Below are positions 2,959 through 10,467 of a stretch of DNA of 39,670 bases, in pieces. A program made the translations under genes and the position numbers. The DNA comes from a virus (lineage: Duplodnaviria; Heunggongvirae; Uroviricota; Caudoviricetes), in the IMG/VR virus record IMGVR_UViG_649989947_000012, positions 1 through 39,670 of that record; one strand, 5' to 3'. The notes beneath the pieces were generated by a model. That model searched no databases. It worked only from the letters and a program-made list of their open reading frames with translations, and had not been told where the DNA came from. Position 1 is the first letter of the stretch. The number at the start of each line of letters is the position of its first letter.

Positions 2959-3139
2959 TCTAGTAACTATAAGAGGTGTTAATTATTAATTGACAATCTT
3001 TAGTGTTTCGCGCACCTTGCAAGTATCCAATATTTACTGATTGTGGACGCATAAAGAAGATCCACAGCGTTACAAATTTGTATTTCTTTCTTCAGCAATT
3101 AAGCAGGCGACTTGCTCTATCCTGCCCAAAGGAACACGT

Positions 3140-4495
3140 ATGACACACTGCAAAGAAAATACTTGGTATGAGCGTCAAGGGTACAATACCACCCGCCCGA
3201 ATGAGATAAGGTCGGAGTATGAACGTGATCTTTCCCGGTTAATCCACTCTTCCGCTTTTAGGAGATTACAATCGAAGACGCAGGTGTTGGGATTGGGCGA
3301 AAGCGATTTCTACCGTACGCGGCTAACTCACTCTATGGAAGTAGCGCAAATTGGCGGCGGTATCTTGTCTCAGTTGTCTAAGCGCGATACAGATGAGGGG
3401 GGTAAATTCTTACCTGACCCAAGCCTGATGCAGGCTATCTGCCTTGCTCATGATATAGGACATCCCCCCTTCGGTCATGGTGGTGAGGTCGCACTAAACT
3501 ACTGCATGAGATCCTATGGCGGCTTTGAAGGTAACGGGCAGACACTGCGTATACTCTCCAAACTGGATAAGTACACCGAAACCAATGGGCTGGATCCCAC
3601 CCGTAGACTTATTTTAGGCGTACTGAAATATCCAGCAAGCTATTCAGAGGTCGTCAATGAGAGGGCTTACAGCCAGTTACAGCCAAGAAGCAATGAGTGG
3701 TTGTTTAAATCATCCGAATTTAAGCCCCCGAAATGTTACCTGGACTCTGAGGAGAACACTGTTAGATTCGCACTCCAACCTTTTGATAGTGATGATGTTA
3801 AGTTATTCAAAACGGTAAAAACTACCGCGTTGAATAAGCACAAGGAAACAATATATAAAGCACTGGATACAACGATTATGGACTTGGCTGATGAGATATC
3901 CTACTCACTCCATGATCTTGAAGACGCAATTTCTCTGAAGATGATCGACAAAAAAATGTGGGAGGAGCACTTCGAGGACAAATCCCATTTATTTGCAGCT
4001 TGCCAATGCGACTCGTTTAATCTAAAAGCCGATGATGTAGCTGAAAAACTGTTCGGCGAAAGTTATCTACGCAAGGAGTGCATAGGGACACTTGTTCATC
4101 TGATGATCACTAGCGTTAAGCTTGAAGTGCAGAACTCTGATTTCAAAAGTAAAATTTTACGCTATAAAGTAGCACTTCCTGCCGCGGTAGAAGAGTTACG
4201 TAAAGCCATTTTTGAGCTGGTTAGGAACAAAGTTATTCAGCACGAAAACGTCCAACTATTAGAGTTCAAAGGTCAGAAACTGATTGTGGAACTATTCAAT
4301 GTACTGGCAAATGACCCAATACGTTTTCTCCCGACAGAAACTCGAAAGAAATATAATCAAGAGGAAGCAAAAGGTGATGATAAAAAAATGCGCGTCATTT
4401 GCGACTATGTTTCAGGCATGACAGATGATTACGCTACTCGACTGTATGAGAAAATATTTGTACCGAGAAAAGGCTCTATTTTTGATAGACTCTGA
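3140..4495 (+). CDS. dGTPase-family HD-domain dNTP triphosphohydrolase, 451 aa
   Basis: Dgt-family motifs RTRLTHSMEVAQIG, LAHDIGHPPFGH, MDLADEISYSLHDLEDA and C-terminal DYVSGMTDDYATRLY; start at internal ATG 3140 with an AAGGA ribosome-binding site; AT-rich relative to flanking phage genes. Confidence 0.8.
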   Translation: MTHCKENTWYERQGYNTTRPNEIRSEYERDLSRLIHSSAFRRLQSKTQVLGLGESDFYRTRLTHSMEVAQIGGGILSQLSKRDTDEGGKFLPDPSLMQAICLAHDIGHPPFGHGGEVALNYCMRSYGGFEGNGQTLRILSKLDKYTETNGLDPTRRLILGVLKYPASYSEVVNERAYSQLQPRSNEWLFKSSEFKPPKCYLDSEENTVRFALQPFDSDDVKLFKTVKTTALNKHKETIYKALDTTIMDLADEISYSLHDLEDAISLKMIDKKMWEEHFEDKSHLFAACQCDSFNLKADDVAEKLFGESYLRKECIGTLVHLMITSVKLEVQNSDFKSKILRYKVALPAAVEELRKAIFELVRNKVIQHENVQLLEFKGQKLIVELFNVLANDPIRFLPTETRKKYNQEEAKGDDKKMRVICDYVSGMTDDYATRLYEKIFVPRKGSIFDRL

Positions 4496-4702: not shown

Positions 4703-4814
4703 TTATAATCTTTTAATCAGGCTCTCAATATTAGTTGGTTCAAAGTAATGCTTATTAACCTCTCCATTTATGAGAAAACCGTCTTTTAGTAGTCGGTCTA
4801 GCTCACGCTCTGCT
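4703..4814 (-). pseudogene. 3' part of a small membrane-protein gene split by the IS10-derived element
   Basis: Hand translation continues the 6332..6597 frame across the insertion (…KEAER|ELDRLLKDGFLINGEVNKHYFEPTNIESLIKRL) once the element and one duplication copy are removed. Confidence 0.45.
4806..4814. repeat. 9-bp target-site duplication CGCTCTGCT, left copy
   Basis: Identical 9-mer directly abuts both ends of the IS10-derived element (4806-4814 and 6332-6340). Confidence 0.8.
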
Positions 4815-6143
4815 CTGATGAATCCCCTAATGATTTTGGTAAAAATCATTAAGTTAAGGTGGATACACATCTTGTCATATGATCAAATGGTTTCGCGAAA
4901 AATCAATAATCAGACAACAAGATGTGCGAACTCGATATTTTACACGACTCTCTTTACCAATTCTGCCCCGAATTACACTTAAAACGACTCAACAGCTTAA
5001 CGTTGGCTTGCCACGCATTACTTGACTGTAAAACTCTCACTCTTACCGAACTTGGCCGTAACCTGCCAACCAAAGCGAGAACAAAACATAACATCAAACG
5101 AATCGACCGATTGTTAGGTAATCGTCACCTCCACAAAGAGCGACTCGCTGTATACCGTTGGCATGCTAGCTTTATCTGTTCGGGCAATACGATGCCCATT
5201 GTACTTGTTGACTGGTCTGATATCCGTGAGCAAAAACGGCTTATGGTATTGCGAGCTTCAGTCGCACTACACGGTCGTTCTGTTACTCTTTATGAGAAAG
5301 CGTTCCCGCTTTCAGAGCAATGTTCAAAGAAAGCTCATGACCAATTTCTAGCCGACCTTGCGAGCATTCTACCGAGTAACACCACACCGCTCATTGTCAG
5401 TGATGCTGGCTTTAAAGTGCCATGGTATAAATCCGTTGAGAAGCTGGGTTGGTACTGGTTAAGTCGAGTAAGAGGAAAAGTACAATATGCAGACCTAGGA
5501 GCGGAAAACTGGAAACCTATCAGCAACTTACATGATATGTCATCTAGTCACTCAAAGACTTTAGGCTATAAGAGGCTGACTAAAAGCAATCCAATCTCAT
5601 GCCAAATTCTATTGTATAAATCTCGCTCTAAAGGCCGAAAAAATCAGCGCTCGACACGGACTCATTGTCACCACCCGTCACCTAAAATCTACTCAGCGTC
5701 GGCAAAGGAGCCATGGGTTCTAGCAACTAACTTACCTGTTGAAATTCGAACACCCAAACAACTTGTTAATATCTATTCGAAGCGAATGCAGATTGAAGAA
5801 ACCTTCCGAGACTTGAAAAGTCCTGCCTACGGACTAGGCCTACGCCATAGCCGAACGAGCAGCTCAGAGCGTTTTGATATCATGCTGCTAATCGCCCTGA
5901 TGCTTCAACTAACATGTTGGCTTGCGGGCGTTCATGCTCAGAAACAAGGTTGGGACAAGCACTTCCAGGCTAACACAGTCAGAAATCGAAACGTACTCTC
6001 AACAGTTCGCTTAGGCATGGAAGTTTTGCGGCATTCTGGCTACACAATAACAAGGGAAGACTCACTCGTGGCTGCAACCCTGCTTACTCAAAATCTATTC
6101 ACACATGGTTACGTTTTGGGGAAATTATGAGGGGATCTCTCAG
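4815..6143 (+). mobile_element. IS10 (IS10-Right type), complete 1329 bp
   Basis: Outside end CTGATGAATCCCCTAATGATTTTGG at 4815 and inside end (complement of CTGAGAGATCCCCTCATAATTTCCCC) ending at 6143; encodes an intact 402-aa transposase. Confidence 0.9.
4922..6130 (+). CDS. tnp: IS10 transposase, 402 aa
   Basis: Full-length ORF beginning MCELDILHDSLYQFCPELHLKRLNSLTLACHALLDCK, recognised as the Tn10/IS10 transposase. Confidence 0.95.
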   Translation: MCELDILHDSLYQFCPELHLKRLNSLTLACHALLDCKTLTLTELGRNLPTKARTKHNIKRIDRLLGNRHLHKERLAVYRWHASFICSGNTMPIVLVDWSDIREQKRLMVLRASVALHGRSVTLYEKAFPLSEQCSKKAHDQFLADLASILPSNTTPLIVSDAGFKVPWYKSVEKLGWYWLSRVRGKVQYADLGAENWKPISNLHDMSSSHSKTLGYKRLTKSNPISCQILLYKSRSKGRKNQRSTRTHCHHPSPKIYSASAKEPWVLATNLPVEIRTPKQLVNIYSKRMQIEETFRDLKSPAYGLGLRHSRTSSSERFDIMLLIALMLQLTCWLAGVHAQKQGWDKHFQANTVRNRNVLSTVRLGMEVLRHSGYTITREDSLVAATLLTQNLFTHGYVLGKL

Positions 6144-6331
6144 CGTTAAGCTGTTGAGTCGTTTTAAGTGTAATTCGGGGCAGAATTGGTAAAGAGAGTC
6201 GTGTAAAATATCGAGTTCGCACATTTTGTTGTCTGATTATTGATTTTTGGCGAAACCATTTGATCATATGACAAGATGTGTATCTACCTTAACTTAATGA
6301 TTTTGATAAAAATCATTAGGGGATTCATCAG
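6144..6331 (-). mobile_element. inverted 188-bp fragment of an IS10 outside end
   Basis: Reverse complement of 4815-5002 with a few substitutions (for example TTTTTATCAAAATC versus TTTTGGTAAAAATC), abutting the inside end of the full copy. Confidence 0.85.
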
Positions 6332-6340
6332 CGCTCTGCT
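6332..6340. repeat. 9-bp target-site duplication CGCTCTGCT, right copy
   Basis: Matches 4806-4814 exactly. Confidence 0.8.
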
Positions 6341-6597
6341 TCTTTGTTGAACATACCTGGATATATTCTCTTGTACAACTGAAACGTACCATTCATATTC
6401 CTGTAAGCATTCTCAGCAATTTCAATGGAGATTTCATTTCCGGCGTTAAATACAGGAATGAATATCTCAAGAATATCATTCTTTAACTTCTGTTTAAGTT
6501 TCTTTTTTTCAACAATATTAGAATAAAAGATACCTAAAAAAAATGTGCAGATACCAGGAAGCCAATTATTAACGAAAACCTCAGACAAAGCGTCCAC
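6332..6597 (-). pseudogene. 5' part of the small membrane-protein gene split by the IS10-derived element
   Basis: ORF 6328..6597 begins MDALSEVFVNNWLPGICTFFLGIFYSNIV (hydrophobic N-terminus) and runs into the IS end, where it meets a stop inside IS10 sequence. Confidence 0.45.
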
Positions 6598-6803
6598 TAT
6601 CTTACTCCAGAGTTAAGATTGATTCTCATAACGCACAAACTCCGTTCAAGGCGATTTTTATATTACAAACTATACATAAACGCTGATCAATATCTCCAGA
6701 TTTTGTGTGCCTGTGCATGAATATGCACTAATCATAATCGACCAGAACTTCCGTTAATCGCTAAACTCGAACGATTCTAGCCACATAGACGATCTGTTAG
6801 TAT

Positions 6804-7112
6804 CTAATATACAAACTGATCCACATGATCACCCAAATCATCGTCGTCGTCCTCATCGCCACCATCTACTGCTGGCCAATCAACAAACCAGCCAGCGTAA
6901 AGATGCAGCGTTCGGAGAACATCACTTGCGGGAGCATCAAGGGTGTTAACGAATCCCATATAGCTATTGGGATTTGCTCCAGCTATGGCTTCAGCGATCA
7001 TGTCCTCGGTAATGTCACCGGAGATAATGCTTAAACGCCCGGAAACTTCTTCATTATCATCAAATTCGATAATGGCATCTCCACCTAATGGCGCTGCGAT
7101 TTTAATCTGCAT
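6804..7112 (-). CDS. small highly acidic protein (102 aa) coupled to the ddrB-like gene
   Basis: Start overlaps the stop of the upstream 995-aa gene by 11 nt; very acidic C-terminal half (DGGDEDDDDDLGDHVDQ). Confidence 0.5.
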   Translation of the reverse strand: MQIKIAAPLGGDAIIEFDDNEEVSGRLSIISGDITEDMIAEAIAGANPNSYMGFVNTLDAPASDVLRTLHLYAGWFVDWPAVDGGDEDDDDDLGDHVDQFVY

Positions 7113-10089
7113 TATTTAGCTCCTTTGCCACACCTAATAACAGTTCCAGCAATCCGTCACCATTCATCAGTGATGCGGCAGCGGCCTCTTTGTCATGATA
7201 CAACTGAAGAGCCATAGAGAATACTTCCGTTGCTGACGTTTTGGAAATAGTCGGTGATTTCTGCCGAATTTTCCCGGTGTTACTTACTGAGGCTGGCGGG
7301 TATACCTTCGCCATATAAATATTACTCAATCGAGATCTGAAGCACCATTCAGGCTTGCCACGCCCACCGATATTGACGAAAGATGGCTTATCCCCTTCAA
7401 CATTGGCCTTCAGGAATGACCGGGCTTTCTCTAACAAACCAGGGTTACTGTACTCAAGATGATGACCCAGCTCGTGCCACAGTGCACTTGCATTTTCATC
7501 GTTCAAATTGACAGCAACAACACCATTTAGATTTGCATATGCCCTTCCCTGGTGGTGAACTACCTTTGATAAGGTCGATATTTTCCCGCCGGTCAGGCGA
7601 TAAATATCAGCAAGTTCCTTGCGCAGGTCTATCCCACCATTCTGTCCAGCGCGGGCTTCTTCCACTTCTTCTGTGATAAAAGAGTCGGCCCACTCAAGAG
7701 CTTTTTCTTCAGATACGGATGAGTTTGCGATCGCACTGTTCATGGCAGATAACACTTTCTCGTGGACCGAACCCATACTTCGCTGATTCATTTGCCAGCG
7801 TGTCTGCGGGTTATATGAGAATCGCTTAAGTAGTTGGTCAAGCTGCTCAAGTTCTTCTTCACTGACATACTTTTTAGCCTCACCAATAATGCCAGGGAGA
7901 ATATTGCCGTTAGGATTAAACGCTCGCGAAAGGAAGAGTTTCAGCGCCCCCATGCCCTCCGATGCTTCAATATCACCAATAACCCGGTTAACAATGGCCG
8001 CACTCTTCGGATTAGCATCCGCCAACGCTCTGGCTACAATTTGCAGGGACGATACGACCTCACGCTGCATATCCGTCCTGATCTCATCAATAAACTCTGG
8101 CGTTATGCCGTGCTCTTTAAGGATATCCCTGCCTTCCGCCGTTACCCCATCGATATCTCCGACATGTTTATTAACCCGACTTTGCAATGCCTTAAATGCC
8201 TTCAGAATTCCACGGGAATCATCCGCTTTACTAACGGCCTTCCTGAATGCTGGCAAGAAGTCTGAGTTAACCTCATTTTGTTGATCGGCCCACTGAATGG
8301 AGGCTTCTTTCATCTCGTCCAGAGTCAGATCACCCAACGCGGTATGGTCTGTGAATATGAGCGACAACCTCTGAACCATTTCTGCCAATGGTGATGCCGA
8401 ATGCGCCGCGCTAAGGAATGCTTTCACCCTGGTTGGGCGAATGGAAAACCAGTCAATAGCTGGTGGCATATCTCCGTTTTGTATCGCCTGCGCTATCTCA
8501 TCAAAGCCGTCGCGCCCAAGGGAGGATGCGTGATTTAACAATCCGCGAAGTAACGAATTGCTGATACCGAATAATCGGCACCATTTATTCACGTCGGCAA
8601 CAGGCATTCGAACAAAATGCGCAAGCACTTGTACAAGCTGTTCATCCTGGGGATCTGTGCGGGAAAGCAGCCTGATCAGATGAATAATGTCTTTGATGCC
8701 GGATGCCCGATGTAATAGCAAACTGGTATATGGAGCAACACCGTTGTAACTACCGCCGGAAACGGACTCGAAAAGACCGCCGGATATCCCTTGCATGCCT
8801 TCGTTTTCCAGTTCCTGAGACACCTGGCGAAGGATATCCTGTAACGACACATCACCACCGCCAAACATATCCCCCAGCGCCTGGCCCTGGTGCTGTAACT
8901 CATCATTGATACGTTGAGCCATCAATTTAAAGGCGGTGGCCATACGCTTCGCGCTACGGTTATTCGCGACGATGAACAACGCGAGAGCTTTCACTTCCGG
9001 GGCTGTTTCGCTGAACATATCCCCCTGAGCAATAACATCGGTAATATGTTGGCCTGACTCCTTCGATTGCCTTACCAGGTCTACCGCATCTTTCAATGCC
9101 GCCAGCGCCTTTTTATCGAGGCTATCCGCTGTTTCAATGCCATCAACGATGGTTGTCACAGCCTGCTTGTGCGCTTCTCCTGATAAAGCCTGCATCTGGA
9201 CAAAATCATTGGCTGCCGCATTAAGCGCCGTCAGAACATTACGCATATCCGGATCAGGTTCTTCTGCAACCATCCTTACCAGGCGCGCATCCTTATATGC
9301 CTTGGCAAAGATCGCGTTTTGTATACGGTCTACAAGTTGCCGTGTTGGTCGCCCATCTTCAGTTACAAGGCCAGCCGCCTGTGTGGCACCAACTTGCGTC
9401 ATAAATCCGCGAATAAACGCGTCATTACTGCGGCTAAGCAGATCTCCACTTTCTGACGGGTTAAACAACGCCATCATCGCCGGTGTTATGCTGTCGGCAT
9501 CAACAAAAGCCTTTTCACTGGCTGCCATTTCCTGGAGATCAGAAATATTTGAGTCCTTGGCAAACTGAACACGGTCAACCTTCGTTAACCGGCGGCGCAC
9601 CAGTACCGGAGCCGTCATTGATTCAACCTTTTCAGGCCGTATGCCGAATTCGGTCGCATGTTCAATCAGGTACTCCCGATACCGATCCGCATTACCGTCC
9701 TGATAGGCTTTAATGATCCCCATGGTCCGCCCATTACCTGACTCAACGGCATTGTCCTCACCAATTATTGGCGCACCATGGCTGGATAAACCGGAATCAG
9801 TAAGCTGAGCTGGCCGCAAATCTTTGGATATCTGGTTAACCTGAAGAAGGCTGGATGCGCGGGTCCGGTCGCGCGGCTGAAGTTCCTGGGGATAGTCAGG
9901 ATTAATTTTCCCATCCAGAGTATTGGATACCAAAAGAGCTGAGGCATCGACGATATCAAACGCTGTTTTTACCTCGTCTCCCTTCGCTGTCACCACATAC
10001 GAAACCCGCCCATAATCGGGCAGGTTCTTTAGCAGCTCGATCAGCGTTTCTATGCTGGTGGCCATTACCACCTGATCGCTTAAGCTCAT
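7102..10089 (-). CDS. ddrB: large Dar-operon protein, DdrB-like (995 aa)
   Basis: Size and position after DarA-like and DdrA-like genes fit the P1 darA operon (from memory); carries an HExxH motif (ALWHELGHHLEY) near the C-terminus. Confidence 0.5.
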   Translation of the reverse strand: MSLSDQVVMATSIETLIELLKNLPDYGRVSYVVTAKGDEVKTAFDIVDASALLVSNTLDGKINPDYPQELQPRDRTRASSLLQVNQISKDLRPAQLTDSGLSSHGAPIIGEDNAVESGNGRTMGIIKAYQDGNADRYREYLIEHATEFGIRPEKVESMTAPVLVRRRLTKVDRVQFAKDSNISDLQEMAASEKAFVDADSITPAMMALFNPSESGDLLSRSNDAFIRGFMTQVGATQAAGLVTEDGRPTRQLVDRIQNAIFAKAYKDARLVRMVAEEPDPDMRNVLTALNAAANDFVQMQALSGEAHKQAVTTIVDGIETADSLDKKALAALKDAVDLVRQSKESGQHITDVIAQGDMFSETAPEVKALALFIVANNRSAKRMATAFKLMAQRINDELQHQGQALGDMFGGGDVSLQDILRQVSQELENEGMQGISGGLFESVSGGSYNGVAPYTSLLLHRASGIKDIIHLIRLLSRTDPQDEQLVQVLAHFVRMPVADVNKWCRLFGISNSLLRGLLNHASSLGRDGFDEIAQAIQNGDMPPAIDWFSIRPTRVKAFLSAAHSASPLAEMVQRLSLIFTDHTALGDLTLDEMKEASIQWADQQNEVNSDFLPAFRKAVSKADDSRGILKAFKALQSRVNKHVGDIDGVTAEGRDILKEHGITPEFIDEIRTDMQREVVSSLQIVARALADANPKSAAIVNRVIGDIEASEGMGALKLFLSRAFNPNGNILPGIIGEAKKYVSEEELEQLDQLLKRFSYNPQTRWQMNQRSMGSVHEKVLSAMNSAIANSSVSEEKALEWADSFITEEVEEARAGQNGGIDLRKELADIYRLTGGKISTLSKVVHHQGRAYANLNGVVAVNLNDENASALWHELGHHLEYSNPGLLEKARSFLKANVEGDKPSFVNIGGRGKPEWCFRSRLSNIYMAKVYPPASVSNTGKIRQKSPTISKTSATEVFSMALQLYHDKEAAAASLMNGDGLLELLLGVAKELNNAD

Positions 10090-10101
10090 CCCTGTTACGC
10101 C

Positions 10102-10467
10102 TTATGCTGCCTCTTTAATGTTGGCGGCTATCCATGCCGCAGTGTGCTGTTTAACCTGGTCCAGGTCGATGTATGTGCCAACATATTGACTCAAATCCTG
10201 CAAGGTACCGATAAATGCATCGGTGCTCTGATCGACGAATTTATCAGCCAGGAAATCAGCAACCAGTTTTGGCACACCATCATGTTCCGAAGGTTGTTTT
10301 TCCTCGCCACTACCACCGCCGGACGCGCCGTACCCCATCTGTTGCATGATCTGGTCAATTTCATCGCTGATATCCAGCAACTCCATGCCACTCGCGGTCG
10401 CCGCTTTGGACATCAGAGCATCCAACTTATCGCTGAGATCCATTAACTCAATAGCTGATAGTGTCAT
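10102..10467 (-). CDS. ddrA: DdrA-like small protein (121 aa)
   Basis: Assigned by position between DarA-like and DdrB-like genes; start overlaps the upstream stop. Confidence 0.4.
   Translation of the reverse strand: MTLSAIELMDLSDKLDALMSKAATASGMELLDISDEIDQIMQQMGYGASGGGSGEEKQPSEHDGVPKLVADFLADKFVDQSTDAFIGTLQDLSQYVGTYIDLDQVKQHTAAWIAANIKEAA

Follow-up and report, generated by a model that had tools for sequence, protein, structure and literature searches.

The hxr gene and its junction with ddrB

The stretch of DNA analyzed here, referred to throughout as the window, comprises positions 1 to 39,670 (39,670 nucleotides, nt) of the IMG/VR virus record IMGVR_UViG_649989947_000012 (Caudoviricetes). 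Positions 6804-7112 of its minus strand carry an open reading frame (ORF) with an ATG start, 102 codons and a TAG stop at 6804-6806, as given by the ORF list and the translation. The DNA of the locus is 97.8% identical to that of phage P1, and the P1 ORF in this place is hxr (P1_gp021, YP_006490.1), located next to ddrB in the Dar operon. The features described below suggest that the encoded protein, Hxr, may serve the C-terminal peptidase domain of DdrB as a dedicated partner. The original prediction for this ORF, a small, highly acidic protein of 102 amino acids (aa) coupled to ddrB in a Dar operon, holds (isoelectric point, pI, 4.05; 11-nt overlap; Shine-Dalgarno site). It had also called the protein unassigned, which is not borne out, as the ORF is a named P1 gene carrying a functional label in the databases. 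The relevant features are:

6804-7112, minus strand: hxr coding sequence, orthologue of P1 hxr/P1_gp021 (ORF list, translation, ~98% DNA identity with P1 and relatives)
7120-7125, minus strand: Shine-Dalgarno sequence AAGGAG of hxr (sequence reading; GGAG-type sites also lie 5' of the start in phage JK004, the Salmonella plasmid and the Leclercia plasmid)
7102-7112, minus strand: ddrB/hxr translational-coupling junction (11-nt overlap)
7102-10089, minus strand: ddrB, 995 aa, the upstream partner gene, with an N-terminal ddrB-ParB domain and a C-terminal zincin-like metallopeptidase domain (Pfam; DdrB annotation in P1)
7123-7761, minus strand: C-terminal metallopeptidase (MPTase) domain of DdrB, approximately residues 777-989, with HELGH at residues 872-876 (nt 7462-7476) (motif and BLASTP)
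6867-7112, minus strand: predicted globular alpha+beta domain of Hxr, residues 1-82 (two AlphaFold2 models; signature GW.V[DE]WP at residues 74-80)
6807-6866, minus strand: predicted disordered acidic C-terminal tail of Hxr, residues 83-102 (DGGDEDDDDDLGDHVDQFVY), with the hydrophobic tip FVY (predicted local distance difference test, pLDDT, <50 from residue 83-85 in both models)
6837-6857, minus strand: poly-Asp/Glu tract, residues 86-92, DEDDDDD (length-polymorphic between isolates)

The ATG of hxr is at 7110-7112 and the TAA stop of ddrB at 7102-7104, giving an overlap of 11 nt. Direct reading of the sequence places the Shine-Dalgarno sequence at 7120-7125, 7 nt 5' of the ATG and within the last codons of ddrB. 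This arrangement is strictly kept: hxr was found directly 3' of an ORF of ~1000 codons, with overlapping start and stop, in all 89 fetched loci (89/89), and the 11-nt overlap is identical across all P1-group loci. Coupling to ddrB is also retained at 37-46% identity (Cronobacter phage JK004; Salmonella, Leclercia and Citrobacter elements), and in the distant relatives the overlap measures 14, 17, 4, 8 or 1 nt. In P1, JK004 and the Salmonella, Leclercia, Citrobacter and Pantoea elements, hxr is the last gene of the series lydA-lydB-hdf-darA-ddrA-ddrB-hxr. The late promoter LPdar is the sole annotated promoter of the darA operon, which serves antirestriction and lysis, in the P1 reference record, and no sigma-70-like promoter was predicted just 5' of hxr. 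By synteny with P1, hxr is thus predicted to be co-transcribed within the late operon, and the start/stop coupling would produce Hxr in step with DdrB. The hxr frame has a +1 offset from that of ddrB in three lineages (the window, JK004 and Leclercia), as calculated from the coordinates. A programmed frameshift fusing DdrB to Hxr is nevertheless unlikely, with no slippery motif and with a strong Shine-Dalgarno sequence and ATG before hxr.

P1 Hxr and the window protein are orthologues of equal length, in an equal place after ddrB and with an equal 11-nt overlap; they differ only in details of the acidic tail and a few residues (4 of 102: N56D, A81V, L93F, F100I). Plasmid records with a conserved copy of the gene number 504, and phage records 20. 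Among the first 82 codons, the changes within the P1 group comprise 15 synonymous and 7 nonsynonymous ones (ratio 0.135), and the pairwise ratio of nonsynonymous to synonymous divergence (dN/dS) between the hxr genes of JK004 and the Salmonella plasmid is 0.12, with dS not saturated. Because of this conservation, the constant coupling and the purifying selection, hxr is a real gene.

Hxr follows the peptidase domain of DdrB in P1-like elements

DdrB is a two-domain protein. Its residues 36-167 match the Pfam family ddrB-ParB (PF18763, E = 1.7e-39), and its C-terminal zincin-like MPTase domain has been proposed to process DdrB to the packaged form of 76 kDa (Iyer et al. 2017, PMC5512222). The peptidase domain has no significant Pfam match of any kind; a sub-threshold PDB match to the catalytic fragment of anthrax lethal factor (E = 0.13) is aligned on the HExxH-type motif of DdrB. 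The motifs HExGH..E and TE..SM..Q are invariant across DdrB, its JK004 and Leclercia counterparts and two Vibrio-phage proteins. BLASTP searches with this domain retrieved a 535-aa protein of a Pantoea P1-like plasmid (E = 1.5e-26), a 379-aa protein of locus L254 (E = 9e-24), and gp180 of Vibrio phage VAP7 (E = 4e-14) and gp165 of Bakedbeans (E = 7e-11). The last 95 residues of DdrB (901-995) are its only basic segment (pI 9.4, net charge +4).

Several P1-like elements in which the operon has been rearranged indicate what hxr is linked to. Phage D6 (L089) possesses Hdf, DarA, DdrA, DarB (43% identity) and Ulx (46%), and lacks Hxr; its DdrB has 454 aa and matches P1 residues 2-446 only. The original prediction had named absence of the gene from related Dar operons as a point that would count against it. 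The gene is present in related Dar operons with one informative exception, phage D6, which is also without the C-terminal half of DdrB. Conversely, the Pantoea P1-like plasmid encodes LydB, Hdf, DarA and a DdrA-like gene, followed by the 535-aa protein, which matches only residues 777-989 of DdrB (motif HEVGH). This peptidase gene is followed, with a 1-nt overlap, by a gene for an Hxr-type protein of 109 aa. The 109-aa family was aligned to Hxr by hhalign with a probability of 94.6% (E = 7e-8; 0.3% for the reversed control) and, judged by this profile comparison, is truly homologous to it. L254 has ddrB in two parts, a 601-aa ParB gene and the 379-aa peptidase gene (HEIGH), and the Hxr-type ORF (107 aa) overlaps the latter by 8 nt. 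In L253, an inserted gene parts the ddrB-hxr pair from hdf-darA-ddrA, and the pair is intact. Hxr thus goes with DdrB's C-terminal peptidase domain, and with neither its ParB-like half nor the remainder of the Dar system.

Some further observations concern the Dar genes of these elements. DarB of D6 aligns to residues 1-1924 of the 2255 residues of P1 DarB, i.e., the C-terminal ~330 residues are missing or diverged, co-varying with the absence of Hxr. In L252 (Pantoea sp. plasmid CP034366.1), positions 4837-7953 encode a DarA homologue of 1038 aa with DarA_N and a Pfam Acb1 match (PF23474); the Acb1 part could be an extra anti-defense domain fused to a capsid-packaged Dar protein. In phage vB_EcoM-673R5 (L002), ddrB is annotated as three coding sequences and hxr is intact. 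SJ46, RCS47 and vB_EcoM-813R1 contain a transposase of the IS200/IS605 type (insQ) within the region matching window positions 6300-10200. Finally, an ORF on the opposite strand inside ddrB (window 9137-9568, plus strand) starts at the position matching P1 iddB, an annotated gene of unknown function.

The peptidase domain is followed by a small acidic ORF in many other phages

Viral contigs carrying a DdrB-type peptidase domain were scanned, which yielded 49 loci outside the P1 group. In 35 of the 49, a coupled ORF of 80-130 aa with a pI below 5 lies immediately 3' of the peptidase gene, compared with 6 of 89 other long ORFs in the same loci (Fisher p = 2e-15). Counted by family, the arrangement is found in 13 of 18 cases (p = 9e-9). 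A small ORF of 88-90 aa also comes after each of the Vibrio-phage genes for VAP7 gp180 and Bakedbeans gp165; the junction is a gap of 2 nt in VAP7 and an overlap of 11 nt in Bakedbeans.

True relatives of Hxr were identified among these downstream ORFs by hidden Markov model (HMM) search in L219/L220, L202 and L240 (for L219, E = 7e-9 in the first iteration), with no decoys included. The other downstream ORFs form clusters of families (S2, consisting of F3, F10, F7 and F14; S3, consisting of F4 and F12), whose links to Hxr are weak and co-linear only. Of two wider relationships considered, one was rejected and the other is no more than suggestive. VAP7 gp181 and Bakedbeans gp166 are not recognizable Hxr homologues (hhalign 0.4% with one sequence and 2% with the pair; HMM search 2.3 bits). 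For a union of all downstream ORFs in a single superfamily, only F0 with F1 was significant (S1 versus S2, 24.6%, E = 8e-4; others <=13%). What recurs is therefore a gene arrangement, not one superfamily.

In a few phages the downstream gene has an unusual form. L195 (IMGVR_UViG_3300025030_000060) encodes a protein of 118 aa that bears a poly-Asp tail of its own (DDSRWADDDDDGDD) and is coupled to a peptidase-domain host of an unrelated kind; this small protein is not detectably homologous to Hxr, and its tail may represent convergence on an acidic tail. In L177 and L194, the ORF coupled to the peptidase-domain gene encodes a very acidic protein of 400-500 aa, of which the N-terminal ~90 residues resemble the 127-aa partner in L187 (family F12; hhalign 75%). 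The small-protein module may thus be fused to a longer protein in some phages.

Composition and predicted structure of Hxr

Hxr (pI 4.05) contains 23 Asp/Glu and only 3 Lys/Arg among its 102 residues. The C-terminal half had been described as dominated by Asp/Glu. An acidic peak is indeed found in the last 20 residues (DGGDEDDDDDLGDHVDQFVY; 10 Asp/Glu including DEDDDDD, 0 Lys/Arg), but the acidity spans the whole protein: 10 Asp/Glu fall into the N-terminal half and 13 into the C-terminal half, and residues 1-82 are acidic too (13 Asp/Glu, 3 Lys/Arg).

Two AlphaFold2 models, made from alignments of 10 and 20 sequences, agree in topology. They predict three strands (residues 2-6, 12-16, 28-32), two helices (36-44, 62-71) and one further, short strand (76-77), with a pLDDT of ~85 in the core. 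Neither the fold search with these models, which retrieved no similar solved structure, nor a sequence-profile search of the PDB with the Hxr family (0 matches) gave a relative. According to the models, Hxr consists of an alpha+beta domain of ~82 residues without a detectable relative of known structure and a disordered poly-Asp tail of ~20 residues.

P8, G53, V65, L66, R67, W75, W79 and P80 are invariant in the family, and the globular domain is almost invariant among the 85 P1-group loci. The tail varies in length: the longest Asp/Glu run ranges from 6 to 10 residues among P1-group loci (L006-L085) that are otherwise near-identical, and the reading frame is almost always kept. This variation may be due to slippage at a triplet repeat under selection for the reading frame. 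In relatives at 30-46% identity the tail is still acidic and ends in hydrophobic-V-N/Y. Rare variants in the databases carry a frameshift or truncation, either within the tail or ahead of it (P0005, P0009; P0006 has only 82 aa).

Outside this family, no homology to any characterized protein was found in Pfam, NCBIfam, PADLOC, PDB profile and fold searches, as the original prediction would have it. Residues 1-102 match positions 1-105 of the 105 positions of the PHROG profile phrog_2292 (E = 2.3e-58), which is filed under 'unknown function', and the PADLOC defense and antidefense profiles gave no match for Hxr. An exhaustive HMMER search of 1.84 billion representatives returned only 18 matches, the genuine ones being proteins of 96-105 aa and a tandem-duplicated form. 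Three matches (P0021, P0025, P0026) were rejected as spurious; these are unrelated SprB-repeat, Ig-like and helical-repeat proteins with scores summed over repeats. A wider profile search gave 24 proteins, all of them unnamed and lacking a Pfam domain. The tandem-duplicated form (P0015, 184 aa; P0027, 187 aa) is a natural duplication of Hxr in one polypeptide, in which copy 1 has the short acidic linker WDDEEDLI and only copy 2 carries the long poly-Asp tail.

Proposed role of Hxr as a partner of the DdrB peptidase

As Hxr follows the peptidase domain, with strict coupling and with recurrence of the arrangement in other phages, we propose that the zincin-like metallopeptidase domain at the C-terminus of DdrB has Hxr as its dedicated partner, and we give this reading a probability of roughly 45%. 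If so, Hxr is probably an inhibitor. Late in infection, ribosomes ending ddrB would reinitiate on hxr, so that each new DdrB peptidase domain would meet Hxr. The globular domain could then dock on the peptidase domain, and the flexible acidic tail could cover the basic C-terminal lobe of DdrB (residues 901-995), whose charge would complement that of the tail, or the active-site cleft. In this way the peptidase would stay latent, or soluble, up to the point at which DdrB has been processed to 76 kDa and enters the procapsid along with the remaining Dar proteins. As regards binding, inhibition and what the tail does, this mechanism is a genomic inference.

There is a precedent for such an arrangement in the toxins fused to MuF head proteins: metallopeptidases account for 20% of their C-terminal domains, and an ORF of <150 aa proposed to confer immunity comes after 89% of the toxin genes (Jamet et al. 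2017, PMC5576092). The order of parts is as in these and other polymorphic toxins: a large multidomain protein of the virion has an effector or peptidase domain at its C-terminus, a small ORF (<150 aa) without a known domain comes directly after it, and the small ORF varies with the C-terminal domain, not with the N-terminal part. However, DdrB has no MuF domain, and its peptidase has been proposed to process DdrB itself, not to act as a toxin. Furthermore, hxr has no promoter of its own and therefore could not protect lysogens. The new result is the linkage of Hxr to the peptidase domain. Read in this way, Hxr is a new family in a known arrangement, in which a phage protein packaged in the virion ends in an effector domain and a small ORF with a protective or partner role comes next.

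Several points weigh against this proposal. First, CRISPR interference (CRISPRi) knockdown of hxr did not reduce plaque formation by P1 (relative plating 1.6 and 1.2; PMC10695390), and Hxr is therefore dispensable, on a permissive host at least, for surviving a protease that would otherwise be lethal. Second, with ddrB and hxr side by side, a single deletion could explain the D6 pattern without any functional link. Third, hxr is intact in L002, L009, L011, L029, L046, L060 and L061 although the upstream ORF is broken (stop-to-stop 268, 511 or 566 codons). Fourth, most of the downstream families outside the P1 group are not demonstrably Hxr homologues, and the recurring arrangement may reflect analogy or another shared need. 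The Vibrio gp181/gp166-type proteins are basic, a few of the partner families are basic (pI 9.6), and the charges of the small proteins and of the peptidase domains do not co-vary significantly (Spearman -0.09 and -0.32; p = 0.74 and 0.22; 16 families). Finally, the peptidase activity of DdrB is itself a prediction.

A more far-reaching version of the proposal, which we consider unlikely, is that Hxr is the founder of an unrecognized class of small, fast-evolving subunits that act in trans to keep the zincin domains of polyvalent proteins in the virion latent. With the globular domain docked on the peptidase, the acidic tail (in some members a terminal Cys or carboxylate instead) would plug the zinc site like a detached pro-segment, and the release of Hxr at packaging or ejection would time the cutting of DdrB-like polyvalent proteins into active pieces. 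The S2, S3 and Vibrio gp181-type families would then belong to one divergent superfamily.

P1 Dar is a classic case of capsid-packaged phage proteins that disarm host restriction, and we nominate Hxr as its seventh, DdrB-specific component. Many unrelated phages with polyvalent virion proteins show this combination of the peptidase domain and a small acidic ORF coupled to it. If the partner or inhibitor role is true, it would explain how self-processing anti-defense polyproteins stay intact until the right moment, and would provide a simple genomic rule for finding such regulators.

Alternative roles

Hxr could also be an assembly chaperone or packaging adaptor, which binds DdrB or a DdrB-DarB complex, helps its targeting to the capsid and is possibly packaged itself, without regulating the peptidase. 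The coupling and the co-distribution with DdrB fit this role equally well, and Ulx, a small protein encoded after a giant Dar protein, aids the localization of DarB (PMC9024508). Like hxr, the gene for Ulx lies just 3' of the gene for a giant Dar protein in P1-like phages. However, Ulx has 146 aa and a pI of 5.3, its gene is 33 nt from the darB stop without overlap, it has been detected in virions (PMC9024508), and it is present in D6, where Hxr is absent. Indeed, Hxr is unrelated to Ulx (hhalign 0.4%), and no relationship to DdrA was found either. Hxr was not among the 27 P1 virion proteins identified with LC-MS/MS (PMC9024508), a weak argument, as Hxr gives only four tryptic peptides (4, 22, 41 and 35 residues) and two unique ones were required; recent structural work lists six Dar proteins and Hxr is unmentioned (PMC12810830). 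Moreover, the linkage to the peptidase domain also exists in phages whose head systems are entirely different, which a packaging route specific to P1 would explain less easily. On balance, we regard the adaptor role as rather doubtful.

The original prediction had put forward, besides a packaging adaptor, a DNA mimic. In this case, Hxr would be a free-standing antirestriction effector, delivered with the genome and blocking type I restriction enzymes or another DNA-binding defense protein. Its extreme negative charge (pI 4.05) and its location in an antirestriction operon would be in line with this, and T7 Ocr, ArdA and T4 Arn are likewise small, very acidic, phage- or plasmid-encoded proteins of an antirestriction setting (Hxr, 23/102 Asp/Glu). 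No positive support beyond charge was found, however. Hxr has no sequence or fold similarity to known DNA mimics or to any solved structure. Its charge peaks in a tail that is predicted to be disordered and is variable in length, i.e., not a rigid DNA-like surface, and its conservation lies on hydrophobic core residues. It is expressed late rather than early, and acidity alone is not discriminating, as the neighboring DdrA is equally acidic (pI 4.07). In favor of the idea, the Hxr tail, acidic with a hydrophobic end, is reminiscent of those by which SSB and T7 gp2.5 bind proteins. On the whole, a DNA-mimic role appears improbable.

Still less probable is that Hxr is a substrate or a pro-peptide-like product, cleaved by the DdrB peptidase or by the prohead protease, e.g., with release of an acidic internal capsid peptide. 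Adjacent genes for a peptidase and its substrate do exist, as in pairs of the ImmA/ImmR type, where a zinc metallopeptidase is encoded beside an Xre-family repressor that it cleaves. The ddrB-hxr pair is similar insofar as an HExxH metallopeptidase adjoins a small protein once called 'Xre-like', but Hxr possesses neither a helix-turn-helix (HTH) domain nor a helical repressor fold, and the DdrB peptidase domain has no significant Pfam match. DarA and DdrB are proteolytically processed during head maturation, which would favor cleavage of Hxr as well. However, a conserved cleavage motif could not be identified, and among virion proteins no peptides from Hxr were reported (PMC9024508). Purifying selection on the conserved globular domain speaks for a folded functional protein and not for a mere precursor.

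The reading recorded in the databases, an Xre-like transcriptional repressor, goes back to the P1 annotation of 2004 ('possible repressor; homolog of Xre'), which records 28% identity to an Xre phage repressor over residues 23-80, and the label "putative repressor" has been copied widely through phage and plasmid records. This reading is effectively refuted: no HTH or other Pfam/NCBIfam family was found for the window protein at E up to 10, nine other family members lack an HTH as well (the ten together give one chance Pfam match, BofC_C, E = 0.027), the models are alpha+beta with only two helices instead of a helical HTH bundle and match no Cro/cI-type fold, a typical DNA-binding surface does not go together with a pI of 4.05 and 3 Lys/Arg among 102 residues, and the gene is expressed from a late operon. 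The gene is thus already known and named, and its functional label is wrong; correcting it removes a misleading "repressor" designation copied across hundreds of P1-like phage and plasmid records. In the literature, a search that did not cover the primary P1 genome and Dar papers found no functional test of Hxr beyond the CRISPRi non-essentiality.

Neighboring features of the window

A gene for a dGTPase-type anti-phage defense protein (PADLOC dGTPase, E = 1.7e-148) is located between ssb and hxr at 3041-4495 (plus strand; core ~3140-4495). P1 has isaA-IS1-isaB at this position, and the gene is therefore a defense gene in a variable region of the P1-like element. It is also found in phage vB_EcoM-673R5, where it is split in two.

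Positions 4812-6334 are occupied by an IS10-like element with a 402-aa transposase gene at 4922-6130. Its inverted arms are unusually long (194 nt, 96% complementarity; 4812-5005 and 6141-6334), and the 5' end of the transposase gene recurs, inverted, in the right arm. The element has the appearance of a full copy with a second, partial and inverted copy directly next to it.

Just 3' of hxr, an ORF of 89 aa (6328-6597, minus strand; no PADLOC match) abuts the right arm of the element with its end. Phage vB_EcoM-673R5 has a hypothetical gene of 369 nt in the matching place between the dGTPase gene and hxr, and the 89-aa ORF, matched to it by position only, may be a gene truncated by the insertion of the IS element.

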